From: Candidatus Poribacteria bacterium
GTDB taxonomy: Bacteria; Poribacteria; WGA-4E; JAJDTR01
Reading direction: 5' to 3'
NCBI GenBank assembly: GCA_965222225.1
Contig: CBDCTK010000002.1
Location: 3,680,001 to 3,744,000 of the forward strand
DNA length: 64,000 nt
Positions 5,373 to 60,660 of this stretch are shown here, piece by piece. The notes under the pieces are model-generated. The model saw only the letters and a list, made by a program, of their open reading frames with translations. It was not told the DNA's origin and searched no databases. The stretch's first letter is position 1. Each line of letters opens with the position of its first letter. The translations under genes were made by a program, and so were the position numbers.

Positions 5373-5441
5373 ATCAAGCGAACGAATAGATCAACCGAGT
5401 GAATAGCGAGGACGATAGAGATCCCAGTGCGATAGAGATCC
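5373..5441 (+). repeat. 35-nt mini-element, double nest (inner copy 5390-5424)
   Basis: atcaagcgaacgaatag[atcaaccgagtgaatagcgaggacgatagagatcc]cagtgcgatagagatcc. Confidence 0.85.
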
Positions 5442-5541
5442 ATGAAGGTTTATAGAACCGCAGAAACCCAACGCATCTAAGCCCCAGCGCGGGCGATAGA
5501 AGTCCCACAGGTGACAACTTGCGTTAATCTAGGAAATCCTT

Positions 5542-5566
5542 GTAGGGAATAAAGATCGTTATTCCC
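5542..5566 (+). repeat. GTAG-type REP hairpin, family C (GGGAATAA-gatcg-TTATTCCC); copies 58584-58608 and 63569-63596
   Basis: Three intergenic near-identical palindromes. Confidence 0.75.
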
Positions 5567-5915
5567 CTTATGATGTCCCGAATCAACGTGCATCGGAAGG
5601 CAGACATCGTTTATGGCAGCGCAATTCACCCCATGCCTACTGTAGGAGCGAGTTTCACTCGCGACAGAAGGTCGCGCCACCTAGAGGAGGTCTCTGCGGA
5701 ACTCTATCGCGCTCCTATGGTAGGGTGGGCATTGCCCACCATTCCCAAACGCGTTGATCGCGCCGCAAACCAACTCAAACTTCATTGTGATTCCACCGCA
5801 GATCGGTTTGTAGCAGCAATCTTCGACTATAAAATCGCCCATTTCCCTTTTTCAGTGCACCTCATGAATAAAACTCTGACCTACTCATACAACAAGGAGA
5901 AACGAAATACACAAA

Positions 5916-7913
5916 ATGCCTGAAATGAAAAGGACGCACTATTGCGGAGAACTACGGCTCGCCGATGCCGGAAAATCTGCCCGATTAACCGGCTGGGTAG
6001 CCCGCCGTCGAGATCACGGCGGCGTCATTTTCGTCGACGTGCGGGATCGGACGGGAATCACCCAGGTCGTCTTTGACCCCGAGATTGACCCCGAGCCGCA
6101 CCAACTAGCACACCAGATCCGGAACGAATTTGTGCTGAGCGTCGCCGGAAGCGTGCGCGAGCGCGTCGAAGGCGATTTATTGGCGCTGACCGATCGGAAG
6201 CATCAAGCCGACCTTGATGCCGGGCATCTCTCCGAAGAATTGAAATCCACTTTCGAGAACGATAGACATTCACTCTCGGCGGATGTGACGATTTCCGTTC
6301 GAGAAGCCGGAAGCCGATGGCTTATCACCGACAATGAAAGCAAGCGCACCTACGCGGCCAAAGTCGTTGACGATGCCCTCCACATCTATCAGGGCACCAT
6401 CAATCCGGAACTTGCCACGGGCGAAATCGAACTGGCAACGGTTCAGCTTGAGATTTTGAACCGCGCCGAAACGCCTCCGTTCCCCGTTGAGGATGATATC
6501 GACACCGACGAGGAGATTCGCATGATATACCGATACATCGATCTCCGTCGTCCCAAGATGCAAAAGACTTTGGCGGTTCGACACAAAGCCATGCTCGCCG
6601 CCCGGAAATACATGGATGAACAGGGGTTCCTTGAAATCGAAACCCCAATCCTGATGAACAGCACGCCGGAAGGCGCACGGGACGTGCTGGTGCCAAGCCG
6701 ACTCAACGCTGGCAGCTTCTACGCGCTTCCCCAGTCGCCGCAGCAGTTCAAGCAAATCTTGATGATGAGCGGCGTCGATCGCTATTTCCAGATTCCTCGC
6801 TGCTTCCGCGATGAGGACACCCGCGCCGACCGCCAACTTGAGTTCACGCAACTCGATCTTGAGATGTCTTTCGCGACGGTGGATGACGTTCTCGAAGTCA
6901 CAGAGGGGTTGATGAAACGCATGTTTGAGGAAGCTGCGGACATTCCCGTACCAACGCCGTTTCCGCGTATCTCCTACCACGACTCCATGACGCGGTTCGG
7001 CAACGACAAACCGGACACCCGTTTCGGGATGGAGCTCTCCGAGCTCTCCGACCTCGTCGCCGACTGTGATTTCAAGGTGTTTACCGGTGCCTTGGAACGA
7101 AAGGGGCGGGTCAAGGGAATCGCCGTTCCCGGCGGAGCGGTGTTTTCCAGAAAAGAGATTGAGAACTTGACCGAATTTGTCGCAATCTACAAAGCGAGGG
7201 GATTGGCGTGGATTAAAGTCGCAGAGAAGGGATTCGAGTCCAGCATCGTCAAGTTCTTCAGCGAGGAGACGCTCAAGGCGGTGGCGGAACGGATGGGAGC
7301 AAAGCCGGGTGACATCATGATGTTCGTCGCCGATAAGCCGAAGATAGTCGCCGACGCCCTGTCGAATCTCCGACTTCGGCTCGGACGGCAACTCGGTCTT
7401 ATCGACGAGAGCCGTTTCGACTTCCTGTGGATTGTCGATTATCCGCTATTCGAGTGGAACGAAGACGAAAACCGTTACGAACCCTTCCACCATCTCTTCA
7501 CCGCGCCCACCGACGACAGCATTCCGCTTTTGGAGACCGATCCGGGGGACGCCCAATCGCAGCACTACGATCTCGTCATCAACGGCATAGAGATTTGCAG
7601 CGGCAGCGTACGAATCCATCGCTGGGATATTCAGCAGAAAGTGTTGGAACTCCTGAACATCGGTCCCGAGGAAGTCGAAAGCCGATATGGCTACTTCATC
7701 AAAGCCTTGCAACACGGCACGCCGCCGCACGCCGGCATTGCGCCCGGGCTGGATCGCATCCTGATGCTGATGACCGGCGAAGAGAATATCCGCGAAGTCA
7801 TCGCCTTCCCGAAAACCCAAAAAGGCTTATGCCTCCTCACCAGCGCCCCCTCCCAAGTCACCGACGAGCAGTTGGAGGAATTATCAATCAAAGTGGATCT
7901 GGAGCAGGAATAA
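5916..7913 (+). CDS. aspS: Aspartate--tRNA ligase (probably non-discriminating), with a ~74-aa insertion in the anticodon-binding domain
   Basis: RTHYCG, RRDHGG, TPEGARD, LPQSPQQFKQ, CFRDED, PPHAGIAPGLDR, FPKT. Confidence 0.97.
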   Translation: MPEMKRTHYCGELRLADAGKSARLTGWVARRRDHGGVIFVDVRDRTGITQVVFDPEIDPEPHQLAHQIRNEFVLSVAGSVRERVEGDLLALTDRKHQADLDAGHLSEELKSTFENDRHSLSADVTISVREAGSRWLITDNESKRTYAAKVVDDALHIYQGTINPELATGEIELATVQLEILNRAETPPFPVEDDIDTDEEIRMIYRYIDLRRPKMQKTLAVRHKAMLAARKYMDEQGFLEIETPILMNSTPEGARDVLVPSRLNAGSFYALPQSPQQFKQILMMSGVDRYFQIPRCFRDEDTRADRQLEFTQLDLEMSFATVDDVLEVTEGLMKRMFEEAADIPVPTPFPRISYHDSMTRFGNDKPDTRFGMELSELSDLVADCDFKVFTGALERKGRVKGIAVPGGAVFSRKEIENLTEFVAIYKARGLAWIKVAEKGFESSIVKFFSEETLKAVAERMGAKPGDIMMFVADKPKIVADALSNLRLRLGRQLGLIDESRFDFLWIVDYPLFEWNEDENRYEPFHHLFTAPTDDSIPLLETDPGDAQSQHYDLVINGIEICSGSVRIHRWDIQQKVLELLNIGPEEVESRYGYFIKALQHGTPPHAGIAPGLDRILMLMTGEENIREVIAFPKTQKGLCLLTSAPSQVTDEQLEELSIKVDLEQE

Positions 7914-8131
7914 CTCATGCGGTGGTGTCCTGCTTTGTAGGGTGCGCATTGCGCACCAGCCTTTGTAAGCCCCAATGACGCGACAGTTGTTGTAGGGTAG
8001 GCATCGCCCACCAGCGTTTGATTTTATAGGGTGGGATTTGCGATTACAAATCGCAGATTTCTTCTCTTACCGCCCATCAGCCTTTGGTTTTGTAGCATAA
8101 ACATTCCCCACTAACAACGCCGTGTCGCCTA

Positions 8132-8413: not shown

Positions 8414-8526
8414 GGTGAGCTTCCTTTCAATTTTGTAGTATAATATCATGATTTTACCGCTTAATTCCAGCGTTTTACCCTCACGACCAACGAACAATTT
8501 CAATCCCAATATCTGAGATAATCTTC

Positions 8527-11509: not shown

Positions 11510-11737
11510 GCTAGACGCAACAATCAGCGCGCTTTTCCCTTCAGAGGGGTGCGCTGCCCCTCCCCTCTATACGACGCGATCTAGTTGTTTCATCGGCTCC
11601 GGCAATTTCATATCCTATATTACGAATATGCCCTGGACCGACACGTATTAAATTCTAACGGTCCAGATCCCTATCCTCATATCAATAACTCCCCCTTACG
11701 CCCAGAAACCCCAAAACACGCCCAAGGAGAACCACCT

Positions 11738-14686
11738 ATGCCACAAAACAACCGCACCCCCGAAATCCAAGACTACCGACACGACGCCGCCACCCGAAGA
11801 AACAACCCTCCCGCCGGCATCGCCTCCCACGGGGGGCTCCGCGAAAAACCAAAGCGAGAATACGCCTACAACCCCCACCTGCCGCCTGTCCTCCGATTCA
11901 ACGAGACCGGAGCAGCCGACCAACTCCCCGAACTCCTCGAAAAGGCGAAGAACGGACTTTCCGACGACGAAATCAAAATCCTCGCCGACGCATTGAAAGA
12001 CCGCGCCCCCTGGCTCGAATGGGCAGGCAAACAGGAGGCGAAATCCTTCGCCGTCGATCCGGTGGCGCTGCATATCCACGAGCGCGTGAGCGCAAAAGCC
12101 ATTATGCGAGCCGCGGGACGCCAAGATGTCCAACGCCACCTCTTCGCCGACCCGCAGCAGGCGTATCACGAGGCGGTGCAGTTCTACCAGCACGACGTGG
12201 ATTGGTCTAACCGCCTCATCTTGGGCGATAGCCTCACCGTGATGAGTTCCCTCGCGCATCGCGAAGACCTCGCCGGCAAAGTGCAGATGATCTACATCGA
12301 CCCGCCCTACGGCATCAAGTTTGCCTCAAACTTTCAGCCCACCGTGTTTCAGCGTGATGTGAAGGACAAGGAGAGCGACCTAACCCGCGAACCGGAACAG
12401 ATTAAAGCCTACCGTGACACCTGGACGCTGGGCGTGCATTCCTACCTCGCCTACTTGCGTGATCGTCTGATTGTCGCCAAGGAATTGCTGACTGATAGCG
12501 GGAGTATCTTTGTTCAGATTAGTGATGAGAATGTCCATCGCGTGCGGTGTTTGATGGATGAAGTGTTTGAGAGCGAGAATTTTGTCAGTATGATTAGCTA
12601 CACAACAACCTCTGGTCTCGGAAATAAGAATCTGGAAACCACTGGTGATTATCTTATTTGGTACTGCAAAGACATTTCCCAAATAAAAACTCGTACGATT
12701 TGGCTGGAAAAAGAATTAAAGCCCGATAAGGCCTATAGGAATCTTGAACTCAAACATGGAGCGCGCCGCTATATGTCAAACTCCGATATCGAAGGGCGAA
12801 GTGCCTTCCTTAGGAAGTGTCGTATATTCAGATACGACAACCTGCAAAGTCAAAGTGGAGGCGAGAGTGGACAGTTCCCTGTCGAATTCGAGGGGCGGAC
12901 ATTTAGGATTGCACGAGGTAGCTGGAAAACGAGCAAAACTGGCATGAGTATTCTTATTCAGAGTGGTAGGATTGACCGTTTTGGAAACACGTTGAGTTAC
13001 ATTCGATATATTGATGATTTCCTATGCAAACGATTGACAAATATGTGGACGGATACGAGCATCTCAGGGTTTGCAAGCAATAAAAAATACGTTGTAGAAA
13101 CTAGTCTAAAAGTCATCCAGCGCTGCATTTTAATGACCACAGACCCCGGCGATCTTGTCCTCGATCCCACCTGCGGAAGCGGTACCACCGCTTACGTCGC
13201 AGAGAGTTGGGGCAGGCGCTGGATAACCATTGATACCAGCCGCGTCGCGATTGCCCTAGCGCGTCAACGCCTTCTGACAGGAACCTTCAACTACTACAAA
13301 CTCAAAGATGATTCGGCAGGCGTTGTGGGCGGCTTCATCCATAGAAGTGCCGCGTATATCACGCTCAAGGGAATGGCTCAGAACATAGCGCTTGACCCCA
13401 TCTTCACAAAGCATGAACCGGTTCTTGAGGAGAAGTTGGAGGCGTTGAACCGTACCTTGGAGGCGGTAACACCTGAGATTCGCACCGCGCTGCACGCCAA
13501 ACTCGTGGAAAAAGGGAAACGCGAAGGGAAGAAAGCCGTCACCGATGCCGACCGGCGGCGCTGGGAACTCTCGGGGAGCGCTTGGAAGGGGTGGGAGGTG
13601 CCGTTTGATACCGATCCCGATTGGCACCCAGAGTTGCAGCAAGCCTTAACCGATTACCGCGAGGCGTGGCGGGCAAAGATGGATGAAGTGAACGAATGCA
13701 TCGCTGCCGCGTCCGACATTGAGGAGCTGGTCGATCAGCCAGAGGTGGACAGAAAGAAACTGAGGGTGAGTGGCCCCTTCACCGTGGAGGCGGTGCAACC
13801 CGCCGAAGAATCGCTCCACGACGATTCACCGATTGGGGGTGAACCTGAAGACATGTCGGACACGTTCGAGTCCGAAGGCAGCGGTAGCGAATCGGCAAAC
13901 GCCGAAGCCTATCTTGACAGCATGATTCGTCTGCTCCGAAATGACGGCGTCCGTTTTCCCGATAACCGAACCATGGAATTCGATCGGCTTGACCCGATTG
14001 AAGCTGACGTTCTCCATGCCGAAGGCGCTTGGAAAGACGACACCGAAGATCGACTTATTGCCGTAGTATTCGGGCCTCAACACGGTCCGGTGACGGCGAT
14101 GCAGGTTGAGGAATGCCTGCCGATTGCATCTCGCCGCGGCTACGACGATCTAGTCTTTGCGGGTTTCGGTTTCGATGGCGCCGCCCAAGCCGCTATCGGC
14201 GACGATCCGAATCCCAGAGTCCGTATCCACATGGCGCACATCAACCCCGACGTGGCAATGGGCGGCTTGCTCAAAGAGACGCCAACCAGTCAGCTCTTCA
14301 CCGTGTTCGGCGAGCCTCGTACAAAAGTTGAAATGTCGGAAGACGACGAGTACATCGTCACGATGGAGGGCGTCGATGTCTACAATCCCGTCGACAACAT
14401 GGTGACCTCCGAAGGCAGCGACAGGGTGGCGGCGTGGTTCATTGATTCCGACTACGACGGCAGGACCTTCTGCATCACCCAAGCCTTTTTTCCCGACAAG
14501 AAAGCCTGGAGCAGAATTGCCCGCGCCCTGAAGGGCGTCATCGATCCGGAGCGTTTTGAAAACTTCAGCGGTACCACTTCCTTGCCGTTTCCTGCGGGTG
14601 AACATCGACGCGTCGCCGTCAAGGTCATCGACCCGCGCGGAAATGAGGTCATGCGAGTACACAACCTCGGCGAGCAGGGATACTGA
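11738..14686 (+). CDS. mod: Type III restriction-modification methyltransferase (Mod)
   Basis: NRLILGDSL, IYIDPPYG, VLDPTCGSGTT, C-terminal AVKVIDPRGNE; AGGAGA RBS before ATG 11738. Confidence 0.92.
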   Translation: MPQNNRTPEIQDYRHDAATRRNNPPAGIASHGGLREKPKREYAYNPHLPPVLRFNETGAADQLPELLEKAKNGLSDDEIKILADALKDRAPWLEWAGKQEAKSFAVDPVALHIHERVSAKAIMRAAGRQDVQRHLFADPQQAYHEAVQFYQHDVDWSNRLILGDSLTVMSSLAHREDLAGKVQMIYIDPPYGIKFASNFQPTVFQRDVKDKESDLTREPEQIKAYRDTWTLGVHSYLAYLRDRLIVAKELLTDSGSIFVQISDENVHRVRCLMDEVFESENFVSMISYTTTSGLGNKNLETTGDYLIWYCKDISQIKTRTIWLEKELKPDKAYRNLELKHGARRYMSNSDIEGRSAFLRKCRIFRYDNLQSQSGGESGQFPVEFEGRTFRIARGSWKTSKTGMSILIQSGRIDRFGNTLSYIRYIDDFLCKRLTNMWTDTSISGFASNKKYVVETSLKVIQRCILMTTDPGDLVLDPTCGSGTTAYVAESWGRRWITIDTSRVAIALARQRLLTGTFNYYKLKDDSAGVVGGFIHRSAAYITLKGMAQNIALDPIFTKHEPVLEEKLEALNRTLEAVTPEIRTALHAKLVEKGKREGKKAVTDADRRRWELSGSAWKGWEVPFDTDPDWHPELQQALTDYREAWRAKMDEVNECIAAASDIEELVDQPEVDRKKLRVSGPFTVEAVQPAEESLHDDSPIGGEPEDMSDTFESEGSGSESANAEAYLDSMIRLLRNDGVRFPDNRTMEFDRLDPIEADVLHAEGAWKDDTEDRLIAVVFGPQHGPVTAMQVEECLPIASRRGYDDLVFAGFGFDGAAQAAIGDDPNPRVRIHMAHINPDVAMGGLLKETPTSQLFTVFGEPRTKVEMSEDDEYIVTMEGVDVYNPVDNMVTSEGSDRVAAWFIDSDYDGRTFCITQAFFPDKKAWSRIARALKGVIDPERFENFSGTTSLPFPAGEHRRVAVKVIDPRGNEVMRVHNLGEQGY

Positions 14687-14714
14687 GATCTCGTCTCGTA
14701 ACTATCATTCACAC

Positions 14715-14743
14715 TTGCGCCGTAAGCCGGATTGTGATATACT
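14715..14743 (+). promoter_or_regulatory. Putative sigma70 promoter TTGCGC-N17-TATACT just downstream of mod; second copy TTGCAG-N17-TATACT at 18722-18750
   Basis: Spacing and the -10 hexamer are conserved between two diverged copies. Confidence 0.5.
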
Positions 14744-15375
14744 TAACGTGTGTAATGTGTCTAATTGTAGGGTGGGCACTGCCCACCATCTCCGACTACT
14801 AACCGTACGTATCCCATGGTTTCCTGATATTGATTAGGACTACGCAAACGTGAAACTCCTAGCCCACCGCTGGGCTCACGACGTGGCGATGCGTAAAGGT
14901 GTAACGATACTGTTGCGAATATTTTCCGTGAAAGACTTCTGGCGATGGACTGTTACACGAAGTTTACTGGGTTGCCTGTTACCCCAAAAAAATCCAATGT
15001 TTGTGACATTTTGTGATATTTTGTGACAATTCGTGACATCGCAAGAATCAAACACATTAAGACGGCGTAGATTGGGCTGTACGAACAACCTCCTCGTCCC
15101 AACCATTTTGTATGGATAGATGCCAACCGTGTTTTTCATACCTACTTTCCCGTGCAATTCATACAGAACTTGCTAAGAAGCCGGTTATAGCGTGTATTTT
15201 CGCGCCTTTTTTCCCGTAAAAGTTTCCCAATTCTGCATATTACGTACGAAGAGTATGAAATGCTGTGATGATCCCGTAGAATGCAGCCACTTGTAGTTTT
15301 TCTCTTTTGCGTTCTAGCGGAGCAGAATGTGGTTCAGGCAAACCTGCAGGTCGTTTTTGTAGGGTGCGCACTGCA

Positions 15376-15410
15376 ATCAAGCGAGTGGATAGCGAGTGCG
15401 ATAGCCATCT
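15376..15410 (+). repeat. 35-nt mini-element inserted in a family-A REP
   Basis: gtagggtgcgcactgca[atcaagcgagtggatagcgagtgcgatagccatct]taccagcc versus intact gtagggtgcgcattgcgcaccagcc at 7937. Confidence 0.85.
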
Positions 15411-15480
15411 TACCAGCCTTTGAAAGCGCCAGCGGGGCGATAGATAGCAATCTGCATTAAGATAGCCGAGGAAGCACAGG

Positions 15481-15852
15481 ATGGGTAAAAACCACGACAT
15501 CTTTGACGGCTACACCGTCAACCTATTCCTTGATGAAGATGGCGATTATCTTGCGCATCTCGTCGAACTCCCAAATGTCTCGGCTTTCGGACCAACGCCT
15601 GCCCAAGCACTAGTTGAATTGAAAGCAGCTTGGGAATTGATGAAAGAATGCTACCAAGAGGATGGCGCTCCTGTCCCTAAAGCACCGTCACGGGAAGGAT
15701 ACGAAGGGCCGTTCAACGTTCCCGTTGATGCCCGACTTTATCATGAATTAACAAATGGAGCGGCGCAAGCGGGAATCAGTCTTTACGCGCTTGTGGCAGA
15801 GAAGCTAGCGAAGCCGACATCACGTGGCACAAATAGGACAAAAATAACATAA
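15481..15852 (+). CDS. HicB-family antitoxin
   Basis: DGDYLAHLVELPNVSAFGPTPAQA...VPKAP...GPFNVPVDARLYHEL (RNase-H-like plus RHH). Confidence 0.85.
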   Translation: MGKNHDIFDGYTVNLFLDEDGDYLAHLVELPNVSAFGPTPAQALVELKAAWELMKECYQEDGAPVPKAPSREGYEGPFNVPVDARLYHELTNGAAQAGISLYALVAEKLAKPTSRGTNRTKIT

Positions 15853-18357: not shown

Positions 18358-18366
18358 GGATTCCTC

Positions 18367-18754: not shown

Positions 18755-19352
18755 ACACATAAGGCATTTAGATGTAGGGTTGGATTGGCGATCTCCTCTC
18801 TTATTGCCGCCCAAGAAACCTATTTCCCCTGACAATTTGTGACATCACAGCGCCGACGGATGCCAATTGTCTCACATTCCACCGTTTGGAACGTTTCCGA
18901 TTATTGGAATATTGAGTTGCTCAACACACGTAGCTTGCATGAAGATTACTCCAAAATACTCTCACCTTCGAAGATTTTCGCTTCTGCATTCGTCGCGCAT
19001 TGAACTTTATCCGATGTGGCATTATACTTTACGCTGGTGGCCTCGAGACGCCTCTCTGATCCGCGTGAAAAGCATCACTCAAGGGAAGGCTCCCCAATTC
19101 GGTGAGCGCACTTTAGCGCACTTTCGTGAAACGGGGCATACCATGCTTGAAGCGGCGTCCGGCAAGCATTGGAGCCCGATTTTCGATACTGTGTGATTAG
19201 TGCGCTACCCTTACCCTAAAAAAGTGGCGCCAGAAAATACTGAAAAAACTGAGGAAACTGAAAAAAGCGAAATATCAGAACGACGCGGCAACAATATGAA
19301 CTGTTTCCCTTAAGTGGTCTTCTCGCTAAGTATTTGACACATATTGAAACCG

Positions 19353-19387
19353 ATTAACTGAGTGGATAGCGAAGGCGATAGAGATCC
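19353..19387 (+). repeat. 35-nt mini-element
   Basis: cg[attaactgagtggatagcgaaggcgatagagatcc]ca. Confidence 0.85.
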
Positions 19388-20028
19388 CATTCATTGCCCG
19401 TCTTACGGTTTCACGGTTTTCACTGACCACTAATCACTAGCCACTAAACACTTACGAAATGGTATAAGAAACTCCCTACGGCAATAGAACGGCATTGATA
19501 AGCATCGGGCATGGGTTCCGCTAACTGAGTAAGGTCGGATCGACGATCATCAAATCGTCGATTTCCCCTCTTTTTGCCCGTCACCTTCTTTTACCTAGAA
19601 CTGCCGCTATTGCCATTCGTACCATGACAAAACCTCATCGTGGCCAAACTTTTTTTCTTGTTAGCATTTTGTTAGCATTAGGATTCCCGGGAACCCGCAC
19701 TACCAAAGGACACTCCCATTTTAGAAAATGCTAACACGCCGCTTAAATCGACGCTCCGTTAGCATCTCTTTTCACGTTGTCGGTTCGCTGATTCGCACCA
19801 TTGTAGGGGACGATTGTGGATTTTCAATCAACCTTATGTGACCATCAAATCAACATGGAATCCGTGTTCGACAGCCGTCTTATGACCGGAAATGGCTGTA
19901 CTATCTATTAGTCAAACAGGCGCTTAATTCACCCCATTAACGCACTGTCATTTTGGAGAAATGGTATAACCTAATCACTCCTGCGGAGACACTGTCACCC
20001 AAACTTCACCAATAAACTAGGACGCACC

Positions 20029-22953: not shown

Positions 22954-23393
22954 GGTTTCCATGTATGCCGCGACCCGCAGCTACTGGAGCGCGAGTTAGC
23001 CTACATCGTTCCTCAAAACTAACCCCTCTTCGGTAGGAGCGATCAACCGAGCGGATAGTTGTTGTAGGGTGGGCACTGCCCACCAGCCTTTGGTTTCGTA
23101 GGGTGCGACAGGAATTCATCAAATCGCCAATTTCCCCTTCTTATCTTCAAGGTGTGTCCCAGCCATCAACAAAGACATGAAAAAGTCTCTATACCGAATG
23201 ACCAATAACGACTTCGCTACCGATTACTCAAACCGACTCCCATTTCCCGTCCGATTTTAGTTACAATTGGCGAAGGAAATGGTATAATTTAGAAAATCGC
23301 ATCAATTCCGATTCATCAAGCGCTTGGACATGTGCGCACCACCGCTAATTCGCCGAATCAGAAGCCTTAGTATTCAACATAGGAGACTAGCAA

Positions 23394-25016: not shown

Positions 25017-25104
25017 TGACCGATCAACTGAGTGGTCAACGAAGGCGATAGTAAAGCTCGATAGAAGTCCCATAGTGGCCGCGATCGAGTTCCTATAGAG
25101 ATCC
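25000..25104 (+). repeat. 35-nt mini-element, triple nest (105 nt)
   Basis: Outer 25000-25022 + 25093-25104; middle 25023-25034 + 25071-25092; inner 25035-25070. Confidence 0.8.
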
Positions 25105-31555: not shown

Positions 31556-31626
31556 ATTAACAATCTTCGATCAAGCAGCTGAATTAAGGAGCGCGATAGA
31601 ATCCCTAATAGTGCCCATAGAAATTC
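31556..31626 (+). repeat. 35-nt mini-element (31570-31604) nested in a degenerate older copy, inside a GTAGGTTGGG...CCCAAC REP
   Basis: gtaggttggg[attaacaatcttcg[atcaagcagctgaattaaggagcgcgatagaatcc]ctaatagtgcccatagaaatt]cgcgtgaatcccaac. Confidence 0.65.
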
Positions 31627-45476: not shown

Positions 45477-45631
45477 CGGGATTTCCTCCTTACAAAGTCA
45501 ACATGAGCAATTTGTGTAAAGTGGGGGCGGGTAAATCCGGTTGATTTGTAGACACAAGTCGGTTTACTATTGCTTTAATTTGAGATGAGTTGTCGTTTGG
45601 TAAACGCTATGTGGATTTACGAAATGAACCG

Positions 45632-45701
45632 ATCAATTGAGCGGATAGTGATGGATCAAGCGAAAGATTAGTGAGTGCGATAGAACCCCTATAGAAGCTC
45701 C
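45632..45701 (+). repeat. 35-nt mini-element, double nest (70 nt; inner 45655-45688)
   Basis: atcaattgagcggatagtgatgg[atcaagcgaaagattagtgagtgcgatagaaccc]ctatagaagctcc. Confidence 0.8.
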
Positions 45702-45761
45702 TATCGGTAAATCCATAAGGCGGTTTAAGAGGCAAGAACATCCAGTTGCTTCATTTGGAAT

Positions 45762-47010
45762 CGGAATTAGTAGCTTGTAGCTTTTAGACTGACGACAAAC
45801 ATAAAACTTGGTACCCTGTCGTAAATCTTTTCGTCACACGTAGATGTCCATAGTGACTATTCTTCTCGTAGGAGTTTGCTATGGACATTTTGAATCTTAT
45901 GAAAGAGTTTCCAAATCAAGAATCTTGTCTCAGATTTATAGAGGAAAAACGTTGGAAGGACGGTGTTTGCTGTATCCACTGTGGCAGTGAAAAAGTTGGA
46001 CGCAAGAACAAAAACGACATTACTACTGGTTGGAATTGCTACGATTGTGAATCTAGCTTTTCGGCTACAGCAGGAACCATCTTCCATGGTACCAAGATAC
46101 CTCTCCAGAAATGGTTTTTGGCTATCTCAATTCTTTCCAATGCCAAGAAAAGCATATCGAGTTGTCAGCTTGCTCGTGACTTGGACATGAATCAAAAGTC
46201 CGCTTGGTATATGGCAATGCGCCTCCGTGAGAAAATGAGTGATAGTGATGAATTGCTGAAAGGGATAGTTGAAGCGGACGAAACCTATGTCGGCGGCAAA
46301 CCCAGAGCAAAATCTAAGAGAGGTAGAGGCACAAATAAATCTCCCGTCATCGGCGTAGTCGAGAGAGGCGGTCGGGTGGTTGCTAAATTCATGAAGGTTC
46401 TATCTGGTGAAAATATCAGAGAATTCATCCTTAGCAATGTCTCACCCGATGAGTCTATTCTTATGACTGATGAATTTCGCTCTTACAATAGTCTGGACGA
46501 AGATATCGAAAGACATGTTATCCATCACCAAGAGAGATATGTTTCTGAGGACGGCGTAACTCACACCAACACCATCGAGTCGTTTTGGGCTTGTGTCAAG
46601 AGGTCATTCTACGGAACGCATCATCACTACAGCAAGAAGTGGCTGCCACTGTATATCATGGAGTCTTGCTGGAAATATAATCGCAGAAAAGATGATGAGA
46701 TTTTCATAAGATTTTTTGATGAATGCTTCACCTGAGCCACATGAATTGTTTGGCTATCGGTATATTCTGTCAACGACAACATCATGGTGTGCTGAAAATC
46801 CCATAGTGTTGGAAATTAAAATCCCGCAGATAACCCGCAATGCTCCCGCGAGCATGTACAAACGCTTGGTCAACATGATATGCCTCCATTTCTCTCTTAT
46901 AGAGATGTATTTTAGTGTGAATCAAGATTCCGAACACTGTCTAAAATGATTGTACATTAAGAAAAGAAAAGCAAGCAAATCAACCAAAAAGCAGTTAACT
47001 ACTAAGTCCC
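45762..47010 (+). mobile_element. IS1595-family insertion sequence
   Basis: Imperfect TIRs ggaattagtagcttgtagctttt (45763-45785) versus the reverse complement of 46987-47009 (17/23); 8-bp flanks tttggaat / tttagaat (7/8). Confidence 0.8.
45881..46735 (+). CDS. IS1595-family transposase
   Basis: Zn ribbon CIHCGS/CYDC, VEADETYVGG, MTDE, HTNTIESFW. Confidence 0.95.
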   Translation: MDILNLMKEFPNQESCLRFIEEKRWKDGVCCIHCGSEKVGRKNKNDITTGWNCYDCESSFSATAGTIFHGTKIPLQKWFLAISILSNAKKSISSCQLARDLDMNQKSAWYMAMRLREKMSDSDELLKGIVEADETYVGGKPRAKSKRGRGTNKSPVIGVVERGGRVVAKFMKVLSGENIREFILSNVSPDESILMTDEFRSYNSLDEDIERHVIHHQERYVSEDGVTHTNTIESFWACVKRSFYGTHHHYSKKWLPLYIMESCWKYNRRKDDEIFIRFFDECFT

Positions 47011-47264
47011 TTTAGAATAAAATATTATCACATCCTTGAGCCTATTGTCAAAGAAAAGGGGAGAATTTTGCGCTCGTTTAATGTCCATCGCCGGGCGATT
47101 TAGGCGAAATGAAAATGCCATTCCGGCCCTTCGCACCAATCGCAGTCCTTCCAAAATGTGGCGAGATATGGTATAATTCAACCGTGGTGCGGAGCTTTGC
47201 GGGGTCTCCCGCCAAGGAAAAGCTTCTTTGTGTCAATTTAAACAATTAACGTGAACTAACCACA

Positions 47265-47360
47265 GTAGTAGGCATACTCCGTATGCCGTAACGGTTGTGC
47301 TTATTACGACACGGCGGAGGGATCTCTGTCGCTATCCGTTCCTTTGATCGTGCCTACTAC
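47265..47360. repeat. Inverted REP pair (GTAGTAGGCA...) left of the RAYT; the right REP is interrupted by a 29-nt mini-element variant (47320-47348, minus strand)
   Basis: gtagtaggcatactccgtatgccgt ... acacggcggag[ggatctctgtcgctatccgttcctttgat]cgtgcctactac. Confidence 0.85.
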
Positions 47361-47371: not shown

Positions 47372-48017
47372 ATGTTCAAACTCTTCGATTCTAACAGTGA
47401 CTTCCAAATTACAGAAGGTTCAAATCTGCCACATTGGTTTCAACCGCAAGCAACCTACTTTATTACCTTTCGCACTGAGGATTCACCCCCTGGGCATATA
47501 GTTCGACGGTGGTACGCCAAACGATCGGTTTGGCTTGCACAACACGGAATTTCCATTTCAATGCCAGATTGGAAAGACAAACTTGCAGAACTTCCAGAAG
47601 GATTGCGCAAAAATTTTCATCATACGTTTTCACGGCAATATTATGGAATACCTAGACAATGGTCTGGGAAGATGCGATCTGAAACGACCAAGACTATCAA
47701 AGATTGTAGCGGACAGTTTGTTATACTTTAATGGCGATCGGTACCAAATAGGTGACTTTGTGATAATGCCCAACCATGTTCACTTGCTGGTTTGTTTGCT
47801 AGGCGATACAGATCTCCTGAAGCAATGCCGCTCGTGGAAAAAGTTCAGTGCAGGCAAGATTAATAAACTGCTTGAGCGATCCGGCCGATTTTGGCAGGAA
47901 GAAAGTTTCGATCACCTCGTCCGATCGTCTGAACAGTTCTGCGCAATCCAACAATATATAATGAAAAACCCAAGCTATCTCTCGAATGGCGAGTATTTTT
48001 TGTATCAGTTAAAGTAG
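47372..48017 (+). pseudogene. REP-associated tyrosine transposase (RAYT/TnpA-REP, Y1 HUH), frameshifted near 47641
   Basis: LPHW...YFITFR in ORF 47372; VIMPNHVHLL, FWQEESFDHLVR and YI..NP in ORF 47535; REPs on both sides. Confidence 0.88.
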
Positions 48018-48117
48018 TAGGCACACGCCGTGTGCCGTAACCATCGTACCTATAACGGCGTGGTGGAACGAGCCTACTACTGTTGCTTTGTTACGGCATA
48101 CGGAATATGTCTACTTC
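48014..48117. repeat. REP cluster right of the RAYT (three GTAGTAGGC-type units)
   Basis: gtagtaggcacacgccgtgtgccgt; acggcgtggtggaacgagcctactac; acggcatacggaatatgtctacttc. Confidence 0.85.
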
Positions 48118-48122
48118 TATTT

Positions 48123-51720: not shown

Positions 51721-51721
51721 T

Positions 51722-53581: not shown

Positions 53582-53609
53582 GTTAGAGTGTGTGACATTT
53601 AATCGGGTA

Positions 53610-56467: not shown

Positions 56468-56586
56468 AAGCAGGCAGATTTGAAGGTCGCCCTGAAAAAC
56501 CCTCGGATACGAGAGTTTTGTGTCTAGTATATGGAGCGGTTGTTCTGTTGGGTCGGGAGACCATCCATGATTTGAGGGAGAAATCG

Positions 56587-58572
56587 ATGAATTTCCGACA
56601 GAAAATCACACTATATCTTTTACTCTATATCGCGATGTGCAGCGCCGCATTCGCCCAAGTCGTTGAGATACCCGACCCCAACCTTCGCGCTGCCATCGCC
56701 GATGTGTTGGGCATCCCGCGTGGCGCTCCCATCACCCAAGACGATATGAATCGCCTGACACACCTTGACGTTCTGGACCAAGGTATAGCCAATCTAACCG
56801 GCTTGGAGTTCGCAATAAATCTCACGTCCCTTCGTATTGCCGACAACCCAATATCTGACCTACGTCCACTCGCCGGGTTGACCCAGTTGGAAGACCTATC
56901 AATGTGGGCGGTTCGTCATGCCGACATTAGTCCACTGTCCAATCTCACGAGTCTCCGAGGTCTTGACATTGCAGCATGTATTATTGACGACATTAGCGCG
57001 TTAGCAACGTTAACCCAACTTGTCGGGCTTAATATCAGAGGGAACAACATTGCCGATATTCGTCCGCTGTCAAATCTCAAACGACTTAAATCTTTACATG
57101 CCGATAATAATCGTATTACTGATGTCACTCCACTTAGCAATTTGCCAAGGCTGGACTGGTTAGAAATCCACCACAATCAAATAACCGACCATAGCCCGCT
57201 GGACGCGCTCGCACTGTCTCATTTTACGTATGATCAAACATGCGAGATGCCGCCGCTTCCCCTTGAACCACGATTAGCGAATAGAAACTACCCTTCGGTA
57301 TTTACGCGATGGGGCGGCGCTTCTAGAATTGACAATCGTCCCGATGTATCCTTGACGGAAAATACCGCGCTTCATGATTTATGGTACGACGGCCCTCAAT
57401 TTGATTTAGAATTCCAAGAAACATCTCACGGCTTTGCGATAGCCGGCATTCTTGACGAGGCGGTGCAAAGACGCGATGAATATCTTTCTATCAATCCAAA
57501 CATGGTGTTCATTGTTGATATCCGGATGAGAGAAGAGTGGGTATGGGACCTTCCCGAGAACTGGCCGGGCTGGATACGAGACGCCGATGGCCAAAGAGTA
57601 AGCGATTGGCCCGACGCTTTCCTGAACGATTTTACTAACCCACTTGTCCAAGATCGCATTGTCCAACAGGCCATTGCAGTATCCAAGTGCGGTTTGTACG
57701 ACGGCATTTTCTTCGATTATTGGACCGAGAAATGGCCCGTTCTTTCGGGCTGGCGCAGTATGGAAGCTGAACAACGCGCTCGTGACGAGATCTTGAGACG
57801 CATCCGCGCGGCAACCCGCCCGAATTTCCTAATAACGGGCAATGTGAATAATGCAATACTTCCTAGAACCACACCTTACGTCAACAGTGGATTCATGGAA
57901 ACAGTGGTACCGGCTGATCGTGATCTGGAAGATGTCACACGGGAAATAAATATCGACGCCAATTCTCTGTTCTGGCTAGATAAGAATCTGCGCGAACCGC
58001 GTGTCAACGGAATAGAAGGCTGGGCAGTTCCCACCGAAGCACCCGATAGCCCAACGAACCTCCGCTGGATGCGGGCTTTCACTGCACTCAGCCTAACGCA
58101 TTCCGACGAGTACGTCGCTTACCGAAATATAATAGGAGACTCTTACCACTGGTACGACTTCTGCGATGCTAACCTCGGACGCCCCGTCGGGGAGAAGGGG
58201 CAGGTCTATGAGGGGCGATCAAGCGAGGGGACAGCGAGTGCGATAGAGATCCCAGGGCTTTATATCCGCGAATTCACGAACGGCTGGGCTGTTTACAACC
58301 ACAGCGGCGCGGCGCAGGTCATCACGCTGCCGGAGGAGGTGCAGGGCGTCGCTAGCGGGTTGGTAAACACGGAGCATGCGCTCCCCAACCTTGACGGGGA
58401 GATGTATCTGCGCGTCAAACCGAAGAACCCGGCGGATGTCAACGGGGACGGGGTGGTGAATATCTTCGACTTAACGATAGTTGCGCAGGAATTCGGGACG
58501 GATAGTTTGAAGGGAGATGAGGATGGGGTTGTCAATGTGTTTGACCTTGTGTTTGTGGCGAACCAATTCTGA
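56587..58572 (+). CDS. Secreted internalin-like LRR protein with a glycoside-hydrolase-like domain and C-terminal dockerin-like motif
   Basis: Signal peptide, IPDPNLRAAI cap, N.ISDL.PL..LT.L repeats, YDGIFFD, DVNGDGVVNIFDL. Confidence 0.85.
   Translation: MNFRQKITLYLLLYIAMCSAAFAQVVEIPDPNLRAAIADVLGIPRGAPITQDDMNRLTHLDVLDQGIANLTGLEFAINLTSLRIADNPISDLRPLAGLTQLEDLSMWAVRHADISPLSNLTSLRGLDIAACIIDDISALATLTQLVGLNIRGNNIADIRPLSNLKRLKSLHADNNRITDVTPLSNLPRLDWLEIHHNQITDHSPLDALALSHFTYDQTCEMPPLPLEPRLANRNYPSVFTRWGGASRIDNRPDVSLTENTALHDLWYDGPQFDLEFQETSHGFAIAGILDEAVQRRDEYLSINPNMVFIVDIRMREEWVWDLPENWPGWIRDADGQRVSDWPDAFLNDFTNPLVQDRIVQQAIAVSKCGLYDGIFFDYWTEKWPVLSGWRSMEAEQRARDEILRRIRAATRPNFLITGNVNNAILPRTTPYVNSGFMETVVPADRDLEDVTREINIDANSLFWLDKNLREPRVNGIEGWAVPTEAPDSPTNLRWMRAFTALSLTHSDEYVAYRNIIGDSYHWYDFCDANLGRPVGEKGQVYEGRSSEGTASAIEIPGLYIREFTNGWAVYNHSGAAQVITLPEEVQGVASGLVNTEHALPNLDGEMYLRVKPKNPADVNGDGVVNIFDLTIVAQEFGTDSLKGDEDGVVNVFDLVFVANQF
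58218..58252 (+). repeat. 35-nt mini-element inside a coding sequence
   Basis: cg[atcaagcgaggggacagcgagtgcgatagagatcc]ca, read as RSSEGTASAIEIP. Confidence 0.85.
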
Positions 58573-58743
58573 TGAAAACTGAAGGGAATAACAATCGTCA
58601 TTCCCTACGAAGAAGAGGCTGGTGCAGGGAGAAGCGGGAAATCGTCGCTCACTCCGCAAATGTATAGCATACTAACGACCGAAAAACCGCGGGCCTCAAT
58701 GGGACGACATGCGGCAACTTGCGTTATGATAGGGCAAATTCTT

Positions 58744-58989
58744 ATGGAGACTTCACCTCAAGAAAACGCTCAACAGTGGATTGAAAGCTGGAAACGTGCA
58801 TCAGTTGCTTTGGAAGCTGTAAAACGACACGAACTCCGCACCTACGATTATGCGAAAAACCAAGCCATTGTGGACGGGATGTTACATTGGGCTTTTGAAC
58901 ATCGAAAGGTGCGATTGAATAGCGGACTGGTTGAACAACAACACCTATTCATGAAGATGAAATCATCATTAAGTGACTCAGCGGCGTGA
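58744..58989 (+). CDS. Small hypothetical protein
   Basis: 81-aa ORF, W..WKRA...SGLVEQQ; start uncertain. Confidence 0.6.
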   Translation: METSPQENAQQWIESWKRASVALEAVKRHELRTYDYAKNQAIVDGMLHWAFEHRKVRLNSGLVEQQHLFMKMKSSLSDSAA

Positions 58990-59036
58990 GTCCCGCACGA
59001 ACATACACTTGTCGAAACCGGTGAAGGAGAATAACA

Positions 59037-60557
59037 ATGGCGATGATTGACATTGGACCCACCAAGCAGCTCTTCTTTGATGATTTCCTGATTGAAAGTT
59101 TGGCCAACGCAAAACAGGGACTCAACCCCGCAGTAAAGGTGGATGACAACCCTATCCTCCGCCCGGAGCGTCCGTGGGAAGGAAATTTCATGCGGCCCTT
59201 CACGGTGATTTTTGACCCAACCGATCAAATCTTCAAGATGTGGTACACCGCCTCAACCGTCACCGTACGCCTCGAAAACGGGAAGCCGGTTCCCGGTGGC
59301 GCTTCGGGCCTTGTCTGGGACACCCAAGGCGAAGTGATGTGTCTGGCGACCTCTGAGGATGGGATTCACTGGGAACGACCATCGTTGGGACTCGTTGAGT
59401 TCGACGGCTCGACGGACAATAACATCCTCCCCGAAAAAGAAAATCTGCCGACAGCGCCGGGCTTCCTAGACCTGCACGAGAACGATCCTGCCAAACGGTA
59501 CAAGGCACTGCTCATGATCGGCAGCACGCATACACGAGGGATGCAATACAATCTCTTCTATTCCCCGGATGCGCTCAACTGGACTCCCTACGAACATAAC
59601 CCCGTCATTGATACCGGACAGGAATTGGGACGTTGGGCGGGTCGTTTCCAAGGCTGGGATCCGATACGCGAGACATACTACGTCACAATGGAAGCCAGCC
59701 ACCACTGGCGGGGACCTTACGGCAAACGGCTTGTCGGCAGGGCAGAGAGTCCGGACATGATACACTGGAGTGAGCCGGAGATTATCCTTGTGCCGGACGA
59801 GCACGACTATCCGGACACTGAGTTCTATAGCCTGCCGGTCATCGCCTACGAGGGTATCTACGTTGGACTGCTGTGGATCTTCCGCACCACCAACGTGACC
59901 CATCATCCGGAAGTCATCTTCAGCCGGGATGGATTCCACTTTCAGCGAAACTACCGGGAACCCTTCATACCCCGTGGCGGTTCGCAATCGGACTTTGACT
60001 CAAGTAGCGTATACGTTCAAACCATCATCGTTCACGGGGACCGCATCCTCACCTACTATATCGGCACAAACAGTCGATCGCCTGAAATTGCTTTGGAGTT
60101 AGGCGACAAGTCTGTGGAAGGGATTGGGTTGGCGGTCTCACGCCTGGACGGATTTGTCTCTCTCGACAGTGGGAAGGGTTGGGTTACCAAGAACAGATCT
60201 GAGGAGGAACTACAACACATCTATACCGAGGGGCAAATTTTCCAAGAGCCTGAGTCCTTCGGTCAGATGACGACCCGCCCGTTTGGGTTCTCCGGGTCTC
60301 GCCTGTACCTGAACACAAGCATGGCACCGATCGCCGCCGGACCGGGTCCCGGCGAGGTGCGGGTTGAAATTTTAAGGGCAAACCATAAGAAATTGCCCGG
60401 ATTTAGCTTCAACGATGCCGACCCGATTACGGAATCCGGTACTTCTCAAGTTGTCTCGTGGAATGGCAGTTCCGACGTGAGCGCTCTGGCTAACCAGCCG
60501 ATAAAGCTGCGTTTCTACTTCAAGAACGCCAAGCTCTACTCTTTTCAGTTCAAGTAA
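59037..60557 (+). CDS. Five-bladed beta-propeller glycosidase-like protein (GH32/43/130 clan)
   Basis: QLFFDD, ATSEDGIHW, SPDALNW, SRDGFHF, RLDGFVS. Confidence 0.75.
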   Translation: MAMIDIGPTKQLFFDDFLIESLANAKQGLNPAVKVDDNPILRPERPWEGNFMRPFTVIFDPTDQIFKMWYTASTVTVRLENGKPVPGGASGLVWDTQGEVMCLATSEDGIHWERPSLGLVEFDGSTDNNILPEKENLPTAPGFLDLHENDPAKRYKALLMIGSTHTRGMQYNLFYSPDALNWTPYEHNPVIDTGQELGRWAGRFQGWDPIRETYYVTMEASHHWRGPYGKRLVGRAESPDMIHWSEPEIILVPDEHDYPDTEFYSLPVIAYEGIYVGLLWIFRTTNVTHHPEVIFSRDGFHFQRNYREPFIPRGGSQSDFDSSSVYVQTIIVHGDRILTYYIGTNSRSPEIALELGDKSVEGIGLAVSRLDGFVSLDSGKGWVTKNRSEEELQHIYTEGQIFQEPESFGQMTTRPFGFSGSRLYLNTSMAPIAAGPGPGEVRVEILRANHKKLPGFSFNDADPITESGTSQVVSWNGSSDVSALANQPIKLRFYFKNAKLYSFQFK

Positions 60558-60625
60558 TAGATTTCGCTTGAATAACAGTGCATATGATGTTTTAATCATA
60601 TCATTCTCTTTCTCCGTATGCGGGG

Positions 60626-60660
60626 ATCAAGGGAGTGAATAGTGACCGCGATAGAGATCC
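60626..60660 (+). repeat. 35-nt mini-element inserted in a terminator-like hairpin
   Basis: atgcgggg[atcaagggagtgaatagtgaccgcgatagagatcc]ccttgccccgcat. Confidence 0.88.

Follow-up and report, generated by a model that had tools for sequence, protein, structure and literature searches.

A probable mobile mini-element of 34-36 nt with a covarying mini-hairpin, lodged mostly in other repeats of Candidatus Poribacteria

What is the purine-rich repeat of about 35 nt that recurs along this stretch of a Candidatus Poribacteria genome, and what could have carried so short a unit to so many places? The first-pass annotation of the window (the whole stretch of 64,000 nt analysed here) had read it as a dispersed mobile element, non-autonomous and too small to code for anything, that is mobilised in trans. 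The window was searched with the consensus, allowing ≤3 mismatches, and with a profile made from genome copies (E≤0.1). The consensus search finds five full copies (5390-5424, 15376-15410, 19353-19387, 58218-58252 and 60626-60660) and none in 100 shuffled windows. By consensus, by profile, or by eye with the help of relatives, every copy listed earlier is recovered, one of them only weakly (31556-31626). The features are:

5318-5339, plus strand: REP hairpin of GTAG type (GTAGGGTGGGCACTGCCCACC) without an insert, a preferred target; in other species the orthologous place is filled.
5372-5389, plus strand: 5' half of an outer copy (head: GATCAA, 5' arm and loop), loop interrupted; profile 1-18, E 0.018.
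5389-5424, plus strand: full copy that interrupts the outer copy within its loop; profile 1-36, E 2.7e-11.
5426-5441, plus strand: 3' tail of the outer copy; profile 21-36, E 0.0024.
5493-5505, plus strand: tail-only remnant GCGATAGAAGTCC at the site CCCCAGNGGGG^CGACAGG, found by eye and from relatives.
5698-5714, minus strand: tail-only remnant, the same in the closest congener; profile 20-36, E 0.0086.
15375-15410, plus strand: full copy within the 3' arm of a GTAGGGTGCGCACTGC REP hairpin; consensus and profile.
19352-19387, plus strand: full solo copy; E 2.3e-10.
23041-23058, plus strand: head-only piece following GTAGGAGC; profile 1-18, E 0.0025.
24999-25104, plus strand: composite of a head, a copy with a degenerate tail and more degenerate tails; profile matches 24999-25022 and 25022-25051.
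31556-31626, plus strand: degenerate composite, the weakest member; only 31585-31600 scores, E 0.096.
45631-45684, plus strand: head and a copy with a degenerate tail; profile matches 45631-45651 and 45654-45684.
47321-47349, minus strand: 29-nt internal-deletion variant after GTAGTAGGCAC of a REP-like repeat; profile match 47328-47349.
58217-58252, plus strand: full copy, in frame within ORF 56518-58572; consensus and profile.
60625-60660, plus strand: full copy in the loop of a hairpin GCGGGG...CCCCGC, 68 nt past an ORF end.

The places first described as tandem arrays of two or three units are in fact nested copies, or copies with extra head or tail modules, and not whole tandem units. The outer copy at 5372-5441 is present in uninterrupted form in a congener. 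Three congeners have nothing inserted at the site of the remnant at 5493-5505, and a fourth has a full copy there. The REP-like repeat with the 29-nt variant adjoins a broken Y1 gene, and a paralogous repeat at 48013-48067 (family D14) is without the variant. ORF 56518-58572 encodes a 684-aa LRR/GHL15/dockerin protein to which the copy contributes RSSEGTASAIEI, and related genes in congeners do not carry the copy.

On its structured strand, the unit reads, after a flanking G, ATCAA-NN-GA-NN-GRATA-NN-GA-NN-GCGATAGARATC(C), and the conserved block spans 36 nt, including the flanking G and the last C of the unit. The 5' end, GATCAA, is sharp and invariant. Among genome copies, the base 5' of the unit is always G and the base 3' is C at a frequency of 0.67, the 3' junction shifts by 1-2 nt, and the base following the insert is often altered. 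The earlier statement of exactly 35 nt inserted at G^C is thus only approximate. The tail carries ATAG. The two ends (GATCAA and GAGATCC) do not form inverted repeats, as had been noted, whereas the accompanying remark that no long hairpin is present passed over a short covarying one.

This mini-hairpin, the only one in the unit, occupies positions 7-23 of the 36 and consists of NN-GA-NN, a loop G-RAT-A and NN-GA-NN, with 2+2 pairs flanking tandem G.A. Pairing is kept in 97-98% of cells over 182 copies, versus 59-68% when shuffled, and in 94.8% of cells among 53 distinct copies from ten genomes, versus 66.9%. In these 53 copies, 58 cells are changed on both sides compared with 9.7 after shuffling (0 of 500 shuffles as high), and sliding the partner columns as a control leaves 24-60% paired. 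The covarying hairpin is kept across about a dozen helix variants. Strand specificity shows in 91 G.T cells against 5 A.C cells, and the mini-hairpin is predicted to form on the purine-rich (top) strand only. RNA energy parameters give a mean of -2.05 kcal/mol for the top strand and +1.76 kcal/mol for the bottom strand, and the top strand adopts the proposed fold in 146 of 221 copies. With DNA energy parameters the mini-hairpin is not predicted (MFE 0 to -1.8 kcal/mol, z-scores -0.65 to +1.19).

Matching sites, both orthologous and paralogous, occur with and without the element. Filled sites are longer by a net 33-35 nt and show no target-site duplication, in agreement with the first reading. 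At one orthologous REP the window has no insert, whereas one congener has the site filled, three have a composite there, and two carry a different small insert. In the source genome, 162 copies of REP-A have a 5-nt loop and 22 have a 39-nt interior, a net gain of 34, and 29 of 32 mid-length REP-A inserts begin with [GA]ATCAA. Excision in silico recreates existing sites only when 35 nt (in a few cases 34) are removed; the context class of the copy at 15375-15410 is an example, its 35-nt excision yielding REPs that exist empty. A search for empty sites of the kind the first-pass annotation had proposed returned a spanning empty-like match in another genome for 29 of 62 tested copies. The element also enters its own copies, and composites of REP and insert amplify further. 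In addition, 24 copies, mostly within one REP family, are identical in sequence, which indicates recent activity. We are therefore confident, in line with the first-pass annotation, that the family consists of mobile, non-autonomous mini-elements of 34-36 nt, which would rank among the smallest mobile DNAs seen. Because the unit is so small, its mobilisation would have to occur in trans; no partner gene was found.

A genome-wide profile scan, also proposed at the outset, gives 806 matches in the 5.7 Mb genome with the seed profile (E≤0.01) and 1074 with a refined profile, and 0 in a 2 Mb shuffled control. The related loci lie in Candidatus Poribacteria MAGs. Of 176 genomes from the phylum, 14 carry many copies (all 10 in genus g1 and all 4 in g4), and the remaining genomes hold traces at most; at high copy number the element is confined to these two genera of Candidatus Poribacteria. 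In one syntenic region of ~64 kb, the number of copies varies between 6 and 21 among ten congeners. Rfam returns no match in the whole window at the gathering score, and at E≤5 gives two unrelated weak matches in 58000-61000, neither at the unit. No published description was found in the literature searched.

Such a dispersed, structured unit might instead be a functional motif selected by the host, either a protein-binding DNA site or a structured RNA signal, with copies near gene ends (median distance 213 nt) and a covarying hairpin that folds under RNA parameters in most copies. We regard this as improbable. By crude gene calls, which cover 80% of the genome, 755 of 806 copies (94%) are intergenic, and those between co-directional genes show no preference (283 along the genes, 252 against). 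Distances to gene starts are broad and none is fixed, so that the constant promoter distance of a regulator site is not seen. Moreover, positions differ between species, as the range of copy numbers in the syntenic region attests, the motif was not found in most of the phylum, and nested, truncated and in-ORF copies occur.

The flanks had been called unrelated, but about 98% of copies are embedded in other repeats, usually REP-type hairpins, and the left flank is unique in the genome in only 11 of 464 cases. At least five unrelated hairpin families and one coding sequence have been entered. The preferred target is G^C (or GATC) within REP-type hairpins, at the loop or the foot, 4-5 nt 3' of (G)TAG. 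A GTAG lies ≤12 nt upstream of 134 of 507 copies and at the mirror position of 6 of 507; 73 copies stand 5 nt from it and 29 copies 4 nt (102 of 507 together). This GTAG belongs to the host repeat, and at such sites the structured strand of the unit always lies on the GTAG strand of its host (134 vs 6 mirror). The upstream consensus, YAGRGWGS followed by the G, has low information content. A second small family also has a 5' GATC and likewise sits at GTAG+5, and the source genome holds several GTAG-REP families as well as Y1 genes flanked by REP families. Copy orientation correlates with intergenic GC skew, coding-balanced or repeat-masked (Spearman -0.59 to -0.65), with 467 of 672 copies on the C>G strand (339 of 494 among those without GTAG context). 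Its correlation with gene orientation is -0.02. Orientation tracks local strand composition, independent of transcription.

This independence weighs against spread by way of RNA, followed by reverse transcription and insertion, a route we consider very unlikely. The hairpin does tolerate G.U-type wobble and folds better with RNA parameters, and the genome has one RT-like ORF (C2:4499560-4501572). However, that match is single and weak (27.5 bits), the ends of the ORF are without copies, and a poly-A or primer-like feature is absent.

The first-pass annotation had suggested looking for a master copy near an HUH nuclease or reverse transcriptase gene. No cognate gene, no arrangement of head, gene and tail with the same ends, no transposase family enriched beside copies, and no TnpB were found. 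The genome has five Y1_Tnp matches, whose ends differ from those of the unit. Copies do adjoin the intact Y1 gene C2:3080255-3080728, and were considered as inverted copies flanking a cognate RAYT. This candidate was rejected: they are secondary insertions into the terminal hairpin of the gene, in one close relative its copy-bearing end has no insert, and a copy lies nearby in only 3 of 80 loci with relatives of this gene.

TnpA-REP is described as cutting single-stranded REP in a strand-specific manner with GTAG as guide (PMC8266576). By analogy, the element may move as, or into, single-stranded DNA during replication, and an HUH/Y1 tyrosine nuclease of the IS200/RAYT superfamily would cut and join it in trans. 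The (G)TAG on the target side and the ATAG in the tail of the element could serve as a guide to the cleavage site or its mimic, as GTAG does for TnpA-REP. Taken whole, a mobile 34-36 nt family with the features described and cut-and-join by such a nuclease in trans has, in our judgement, an even chance of being right. Counting against the nuclease are the missing cognate gene, the Y1 genes in genera without the element, and the single hairpin, unpredicted with DNA parameters, in place of the two at IS200/IS605 ends. In addition, the 3' junction variation of 1-2 nt and the altered next base fit copy-choice better.

Copy-choice requires no dedicated enzyme: template switching at stalled hairpins, together with gene conversion between REPs, would spread the unit through microhomology of 1-4 nt (G, GATC, C). 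The concentration of copies in other repeats agrees with it, as do the identical copies, which make it clear that the composite is amplified as a unit, junctions that are ambiguous across GATC, target hairpins that are plausible fork-stalling sites, and a strand-composition polarity that suits replication error. We think it unlikely all the same, since the sharp 5' end, the hairpin conserved through covariation and the 134:6 orientation rule are left unexplained, as is, for conversion between homologous REPs, entry into unrelated hairpin families and coding sequence.

A dedicated enzyme of another kind, a nuclease or recombinase outside HUH/Y1 and possibly present only in the two high-copy genera, is also rather unlikely. 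The patchy distribution suggests a lineage-restricted factor, and no Y1 gene tracks the element, but no candidate stands beside the copies, no TnpB and just a single weak RT match were found, and strand-specific structure, absence of target duplication and the GTAG link are Y1 hallmarks.

Within the HUH/Y1 scheme, a more specific version may be offered tentatively. The unit could be a single-hairpin, single-strand transposon of 34-35 nt, a hyperparasite of REP/RAYT, whose ATAG tail mimic lets one nuclease cut both ends and the target. It would integrate 4-5 nt 3' of the GTAG guide in several unrelated REP families, on the strand on which RAYT acts, and the second, unrelated hairpin family would ride on that machinery as well. 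If so, no other mobile DNA of defined mechanism is known to be as short. More broadly, if RAYT-type nucleases move the element, 'domesticated' REP nucleases would still be able to drive insertion of foreign cargo, and the lower bound on the size of transposable DNA would move down. The covarying structure, the fixed orientation on the GTAG strand and the strand-composition polarity make the mechanism directly testable. In practice, ~1000 near-identical 35-mers break short-read contigs, which explains part of the assembly difficulty of these sponge-symbiont genomes, and the copies offer strain markers.

Comparison with known systems places the unit between several of them. Like IS200/IS605 elements and their miniature derivatives, it lacks target duplication, inserts beside a preferred short sequence, has a strand-specific hairpin, and ties its orientation to strand asymmetry. 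Unlike them, it has one hairpin instead of separate left and right subterminal ones, measures about 35 nt against >100 nt, and has neither a full-length parent nor TnpB. Its polarity also appears opposite to the strand preference reported for IS608, if the G>C strand is, by the usual rule, the leading one, and this counts against the nuclease. MITEs differ in having terminal inverted repeats and target duplications. Rickettsia palindromic elements (RPEs) are palindromes about 100-150 bp long, often located in ORFs. One copy of the unit is likewise in frame in coding sequence and adds a peptide, but the unit is 3-4 times shorter and mostly intergenic. REP, REPIN and BIME sequences with RAYT (TnpA-REP), which are 20-40 nt long, extragenic, present in hundreds of copies and often clustered, resemble it in size (36 nt), location and number (>100 copies, here 806-1074), and share the strand-specific single-strand hairpin and the GTAG link. 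However, the unit begins GATCAA and so has no 5' GT[AG]G of its own, it is an insert within REPs and not a REP, and it forms the inverted pair that flanks RAYT only through secondary insertion. Its stem, with only 4 Watson-Crick or wobble pairs and tandem G.A, is no stable palindrome, whereas REP stems are mostly 6-9 bp (PMC3733652). By description, the closest analogues appear to be the small dispersed repeats (SDRs) of Nostocaceae cyanobacteria, described briefly in PMC5861425, PMC3116915 and PMC2884548. Both are very short, non-coding, highly repeated, conserved in secondary structure and without a known mobilising enzyme, and both are site-specific, inserted into other repeats as well as into one another, and present or absent between relatives. 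SDR5 is reported to insert at the GATC-containing HIP1 palindrome (PMC5861425), and the junctions of the unit also fall at GCGATC- or GATC-like sites. The comparison is one of description, and the unit is set apart by its 34-36 nt, its host, its GTAG-type REP hairpin targets and its GC-skew orientation. To our knowledge, SDRs have been thought limited to one cyanobacterial family, and we know of no enzyme that mobilises them. SDR1-8 are reportedly units of 21-27 nt (Elhai et al. 2008, Genome Res 18:1484). Since the SDRs of cyanobacteria, very small mobile repeats that lack a known engine have stood as a loose end, and the element is an SDR-like family outside cyanobacteria, in another phylum and at about a thousand copies per genome.

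The consensus proposed in the first-pass annotation finds five full copies of the 34-36 nt dispersed repeat (the element) in the window at up to 3 mismatches, against none in 100 shuffles. A seed profile built from these five copies gave 806 matches at E<=0.01 and 1371 at E<=10 in the whole source genome (5.70 Mb, 2 contigs), whose contig C2 holds the window at 3680001-3744000. A profile refined on 221 distinct full copies raised the genome matches to 1074 at E<=0.01; 2 Mb of shuffled sequence gave none. The refined profile recovers every partial copy that had been listed, and the existence of the repeat is confirmed; the arrays described as two or three whole units are actually nested copies or extra half-units. 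A core pattern (GATCAA..GA..G.ATA..GA..GCGATAG, at most 1 mismatch) was scanned through 176 genomes of the phylum, and its reversed control gave 0 in all 176. Each of the 10 species in the window's genus has 536-1223 occurrences of the pattern. A genus of another family has 185-202 in each of its 4 species, and there the tail, the 3' part of the element, reads GCGATAGTCTTCC in place of GCGATAGAGATCC. Elsewhere in the phylum it reaches at most 19 in each of 7 other genomes. These low-count matches are confined to a few small contigs of fragmented MAGs and are probably mis-binned contigs or binning carry-over rather than true presence.

Comparison of empty and filled sites, that is, sites without and with the element, argues that it is mobile. 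In syntenic regions taken from nine congeners, the profile matches 6 to 21 times per species, compared with 7 in the window. At an orthologous REP that follows the same gene, the window has an empty loop, one species carries one copy, three carry a nested composite, and two carry a different 35-nt hairpin insert. At a second orthologous site, the element is missing from three species and complete in one, and only its tail is present in the window. Empty and filled states also coexist within the source genome, where REP-A, a GTAG-type REP hairpin family, has at least 162 copies with a 5-nt loop and 22 with a 39-nt interior, a net gain of 34. Among the REP-A inserts of 25-60 nt, 29 of 32 begin with [GA]ATCAA.

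REP-A hairpins in the window (GTAGGGTGSGCAYTGCSCACC, GTAG-type)
5318-5339, REP-A
5719-5740, REP-A
7936-8012, REP-A
14766-14787, REP-A
23063-23084, REP-A

When 35 nt are excised in silico, 10-12 copies per register give 18-mers already present elsewhere in the genome, the four registers being equivalent owing to GATC microhomology. Other excision lengths almost never regenerate sites; 34 nt does so for 4 copies. Another genome offers a spanning, empty-like match for 29 of 62 full copies from the window and the syntenic loci, some of these matches being paralogous repeats and not strict orthologues. At empty sites, the 36-nt block of filled ones is typically replaced by GC, GCA or GCG. These comparisons therefore indicate insertion without target duplication, as had been proposed, with the 5' junction fixed between S and GATCAA and the 3' junction floating by 1-2 nt. 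The earlier idea of a 35-nt insertion exactly at G^C thus holds only as an approximation. There are 24 identical copies, most of them within one REP family, so the composite of REP plus insert also multiplies. The public reads comprise four runs, all of them short-read contigs that end or cross-join at repeats, and are uninformative on polymorphism of the 35-nt copies. Long skips between copies in these contigs were considered as events and rejected as repeat-graph artefacts. Separately, the contigs of all four runs carry 22 extra letters behind window position 34571.

A logo of 302 full copies has sharp borders, and its consensus is G ATCAA nn GA nn G rATA nn GA nn GCGATAG A r ATC C. The flanks are weakly informative, over ~9 nt on the upstream side (YAGRGWGS) and over 3 nt on the downstream side (C-n-T). 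The four dinucleotides that had been taken as variable covary in pairs: positions 7-8 match 22-23, and positions 11-12 match 18-19. Pairing holds for 97.0% and 98.1% of the cells in 182 strict copies, compared with 59% and 68% in shuffles (maxima 65% and 73%). Among 53 distinct copies from ten species the figure is 94.8%, versus 66.9% (sd 2.2) in shuffles, and sliding the partner columns lowers pairing to 24-60%. All four pairs show two-sided changes (58 cells versus 9.7 expected, a value reached by 0 of 500 shuffles). The two 2-bp steps are separated by a 5'-GA/3'-AG tandem mismatch, which is invariant, and by a G-RAT-A loop. Since G.T wobbles fill 91 cells and A.C only 5 in the strict copies, the hairpin is restricted to the purine-rich strand. 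With RNA parameters, the mean energy is -2.05 kcal/mol for this top strand and +1.76 for its complement, and minimum-energy folds include the hairpin for 146 of 221 top strands versus 34 of 221 bottom strands. DNA nearest-neighbour folding does not predict the hairpin, and by that measure copies are no better than shuffles on either strand; support for the structure therefore comes from covariation and RNA-parameter energies. The hairpin is thus read from evolution rather than being thermodynamically obvious, and it is probably held by a protein or formed as a non-canonical fold.

Gene calls were crude and ORF-based (4276 genes covering 80% of the genome). These calls place 755 of 806 copies between genes, 28 at a gene edge and 23 inside a gene, and 562 of 4276 intergenic regions hold a copy. 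Between co-directional genes, 283 copies run with the genes and 252 against them, and distances to gene starts and gene ends are broad. A promoter-linked operator role is thereby excluded. The window copy at 58217-58252 lies in frame within a 684-aa LRR/GHL15/dockerin ORF (56518-58572), to which it adds 12 residues (RSSEGTASAIEI); related genes in other species are without the insert. A paralogue of this ORF elsewhere in the genome has the same insert and similar flanks.

The flanks had been called unrelated, but nearly all copies are embedded in other repeats: a left flank found nowhere else in the genome occurs in only 11 of 464. GTAG-type REP hairpins are the commonest contexts.

Common sequence contexts of the copies
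REP, GTAGGGTGS before the copy and GCSCACC after it
REP, GTAGGCGGG before the copy and TGCCCCGC after it
REP, GTAGGAGC before the copy and TCC..TCGCGAC after it
REP, GTAGTAGC before the copy
Other, 3' foot of the hairpin AGCCCCAGNGGGG^CGACAGGTG
Other, loop or tail junction of another element copy

In 134 of 507 copies, a GTAG stands no more than 12 nt upstream on the same strand, compared with 6 of 507 for the mirror arrangement; 73 copies have a spacing of 5 nt and 29 a spacing of 4 nt. Flanks that form a perfect stem of at least 5 bp accompany 12% of copies versus 4% of random intergenic sites. Targeting of hairpin loops is thus real yet concerns a minority and was rejected as a general rule, so that sequence context describes the target better.

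A second small element, GATCGRCGAT-loop-ATCGYCGATTTCC(CCTCTTA), is ~35 nt long and has its own covarying stem. It sits after GTAGGNNNS with a 5' GATC start, the same place as the main family, and it is the insert that replaces the 35-nt element at the orthologous REP in two species. A regular expression finds ~11 copies.

Second family in the window
~554-586, copy
~8035-8065, copy
19538-19571, copy

In the contigs of two public runs, X3 and X9, positions 19534-19571 are replaced by 6 letters, the only clean event in the reads. The 5' GATC and the target are thus common to two unrelated hairpins, which argues for shared machinery of insertion.

The copies are also polarized along the chromosome. 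Neighbours less than 100 nt apart have the same orientation in 114 of 126 cases, and orientation is blockwise over hundreds of kb, as at 5.25-5.5 Mb (52 plus, 4 minus). In 100-kb bins, orientation correlates with GC skew (-0.52) and AT skew (+0.53), with a form of skew in which coding effects cancel out (-0.59) and with intergenic skew after masking the copies (-0.64); its correlation with gene orientation is -0.02. The structured strand lies on the C>G strand in 467 of 672 copies, and the bias is kept in copies outside GTAG context (339 of 494). The same bias is seen in empty REP-A units, with 100 of 139 on the C>G strand, but not in two other target families. The usual skew rule would put the structured strand on the leading-strand template. 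The coding-balanced GC skew changes sign more than 10 times along the whole chromosome contig, which points to numerous inversions or to a replication asymmetry that is weak or unusual; with so many switches, skew does not place the origin.

Thirty-five bases encode nothing. The strand-specific hairpin, the lack of duplication, the preferred left flank, the orientation with the GTAG strand and the link to strand asymmetry point to an HUH/Y1 nuclease, which would move the element by acting on single-stranded DNA. TnpA-REP, an HUH-type tyrosine nuclease, is described as cleaving single-stranded REP on one strand only, with GTAG as the guide of the cut, leaving a 3'-OH available for joining to another end (PMC8266576). 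Five Y1_Tnp matches are present in the genome.

Y1_Tnp matches and the associated repeat
Intact 157-aa protein, motifs DHIH / WQ / YIKNQEAHH, given as subclass 1.2 motifs by Quentin et al. (PMC6006769)
Intact 247-aa protein, class-2-like
Gene with an internal stop
One fragment
Window 47372-48017, frameshifted RAYT-like gene in two overlapping ORFs (47372-47731 and 47535-48017)
Window 47264-47318 and 48013-48067, direct copies of a GTAG-type repeat (AGTAGTAGGCAYAC... hairpin) bracketing the frameshifted gene

Pfam scores do not separate the Y1 subfamilies. An intact 221-aa version of the frameshifted gene exists in a congener. None of the five genes is demonstrably the partner of the element, and none is flanked by REP-A. 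Two Y1 genes in the source genome have copies on either side. The 157-aa gene forms a ~620-bp unit (C2:3080170-3080790 of the source genome, G000) with inverted terminal hairpins AAGCCCCAGNGGGGCGACAGGTG, and this unit has different neighbourhoods in related genomes. One of its ends contains a 35-nt copy in some relatives and lacks it in one; given the unit's own hairpin ends and this variable presence, the association was rejected as evidence of a cognate pair.

A parent element was sought by pairing orphan heads (GATCAA plus 5' arm and loop) with the next same-strand tail across the genome, and none emerged. The distances peak at 40-60 nt, reflecting nesting, with no gene-sized peak and only ~10 scattered pairs at 1.1-1.4 kb. 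Within 250 nt of a copy lie 707 of 4276 genes, the top families having 11 of 22 and 11 of 24 members there; no transposase family is enriched, and the top families, judged only by eye from first residues, do not resemble nucleases or transposases. No TnpB was found in the genome. The only RT-like ORF (G000:C2:4499560-4501572, 671 aa) has a weak PF00078 score of 27.5 bits and a YVDD motif; we take it to resemble a defence-type RT rather than a retroelement. No cognate gene was found. With no partner gene, no head-gene-tail arrangement and no enriched transposase family, the HUH mechanism therefore stands at about an even chance, and spread by copy-choice or conversion, or mobilisation by another enzyme, remain as the alternatives.

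The window also holds an IS1595-family insertion sequence (45761-47013; 284-aa transposase, DDE_Tnp_IS1595 126 bits), which is probably active because at least 30 copies in the source genome are 100% identical. Two further segments, 11723-15588 (100% identical to C2:1357108-1360972) and 20018-23009 (95% identical to C2:1365311-1368302), are a recent multi-kb duplication.

No Rfam family matches the element, and the literature searched gave no description of it, of its tail sequence or of any REP- or SDR-like element in Poribacteria. Unlike REPs, the element has no GTAG of its own and almost no palindrome, and it is not a RAYT flank. It differs from MITEs in lacking inverted ends and duplication, and from IS200/IS605 miniatures in having one hairpin and no parent. 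The small dispersed repeats (SDRs) of cyanobacteria are closest in behaviour, and the host of the element is a sponge-symbiont lineage, not a cyanobacterium. In the cyanobacterial genomes treated in PMC5861425, SDRs are reported as lacking from HIP1-enriched species outside Nostocaceae, and the insertion site of SDR5 is given as the GATC-containing HIP1 (PMC5861425).
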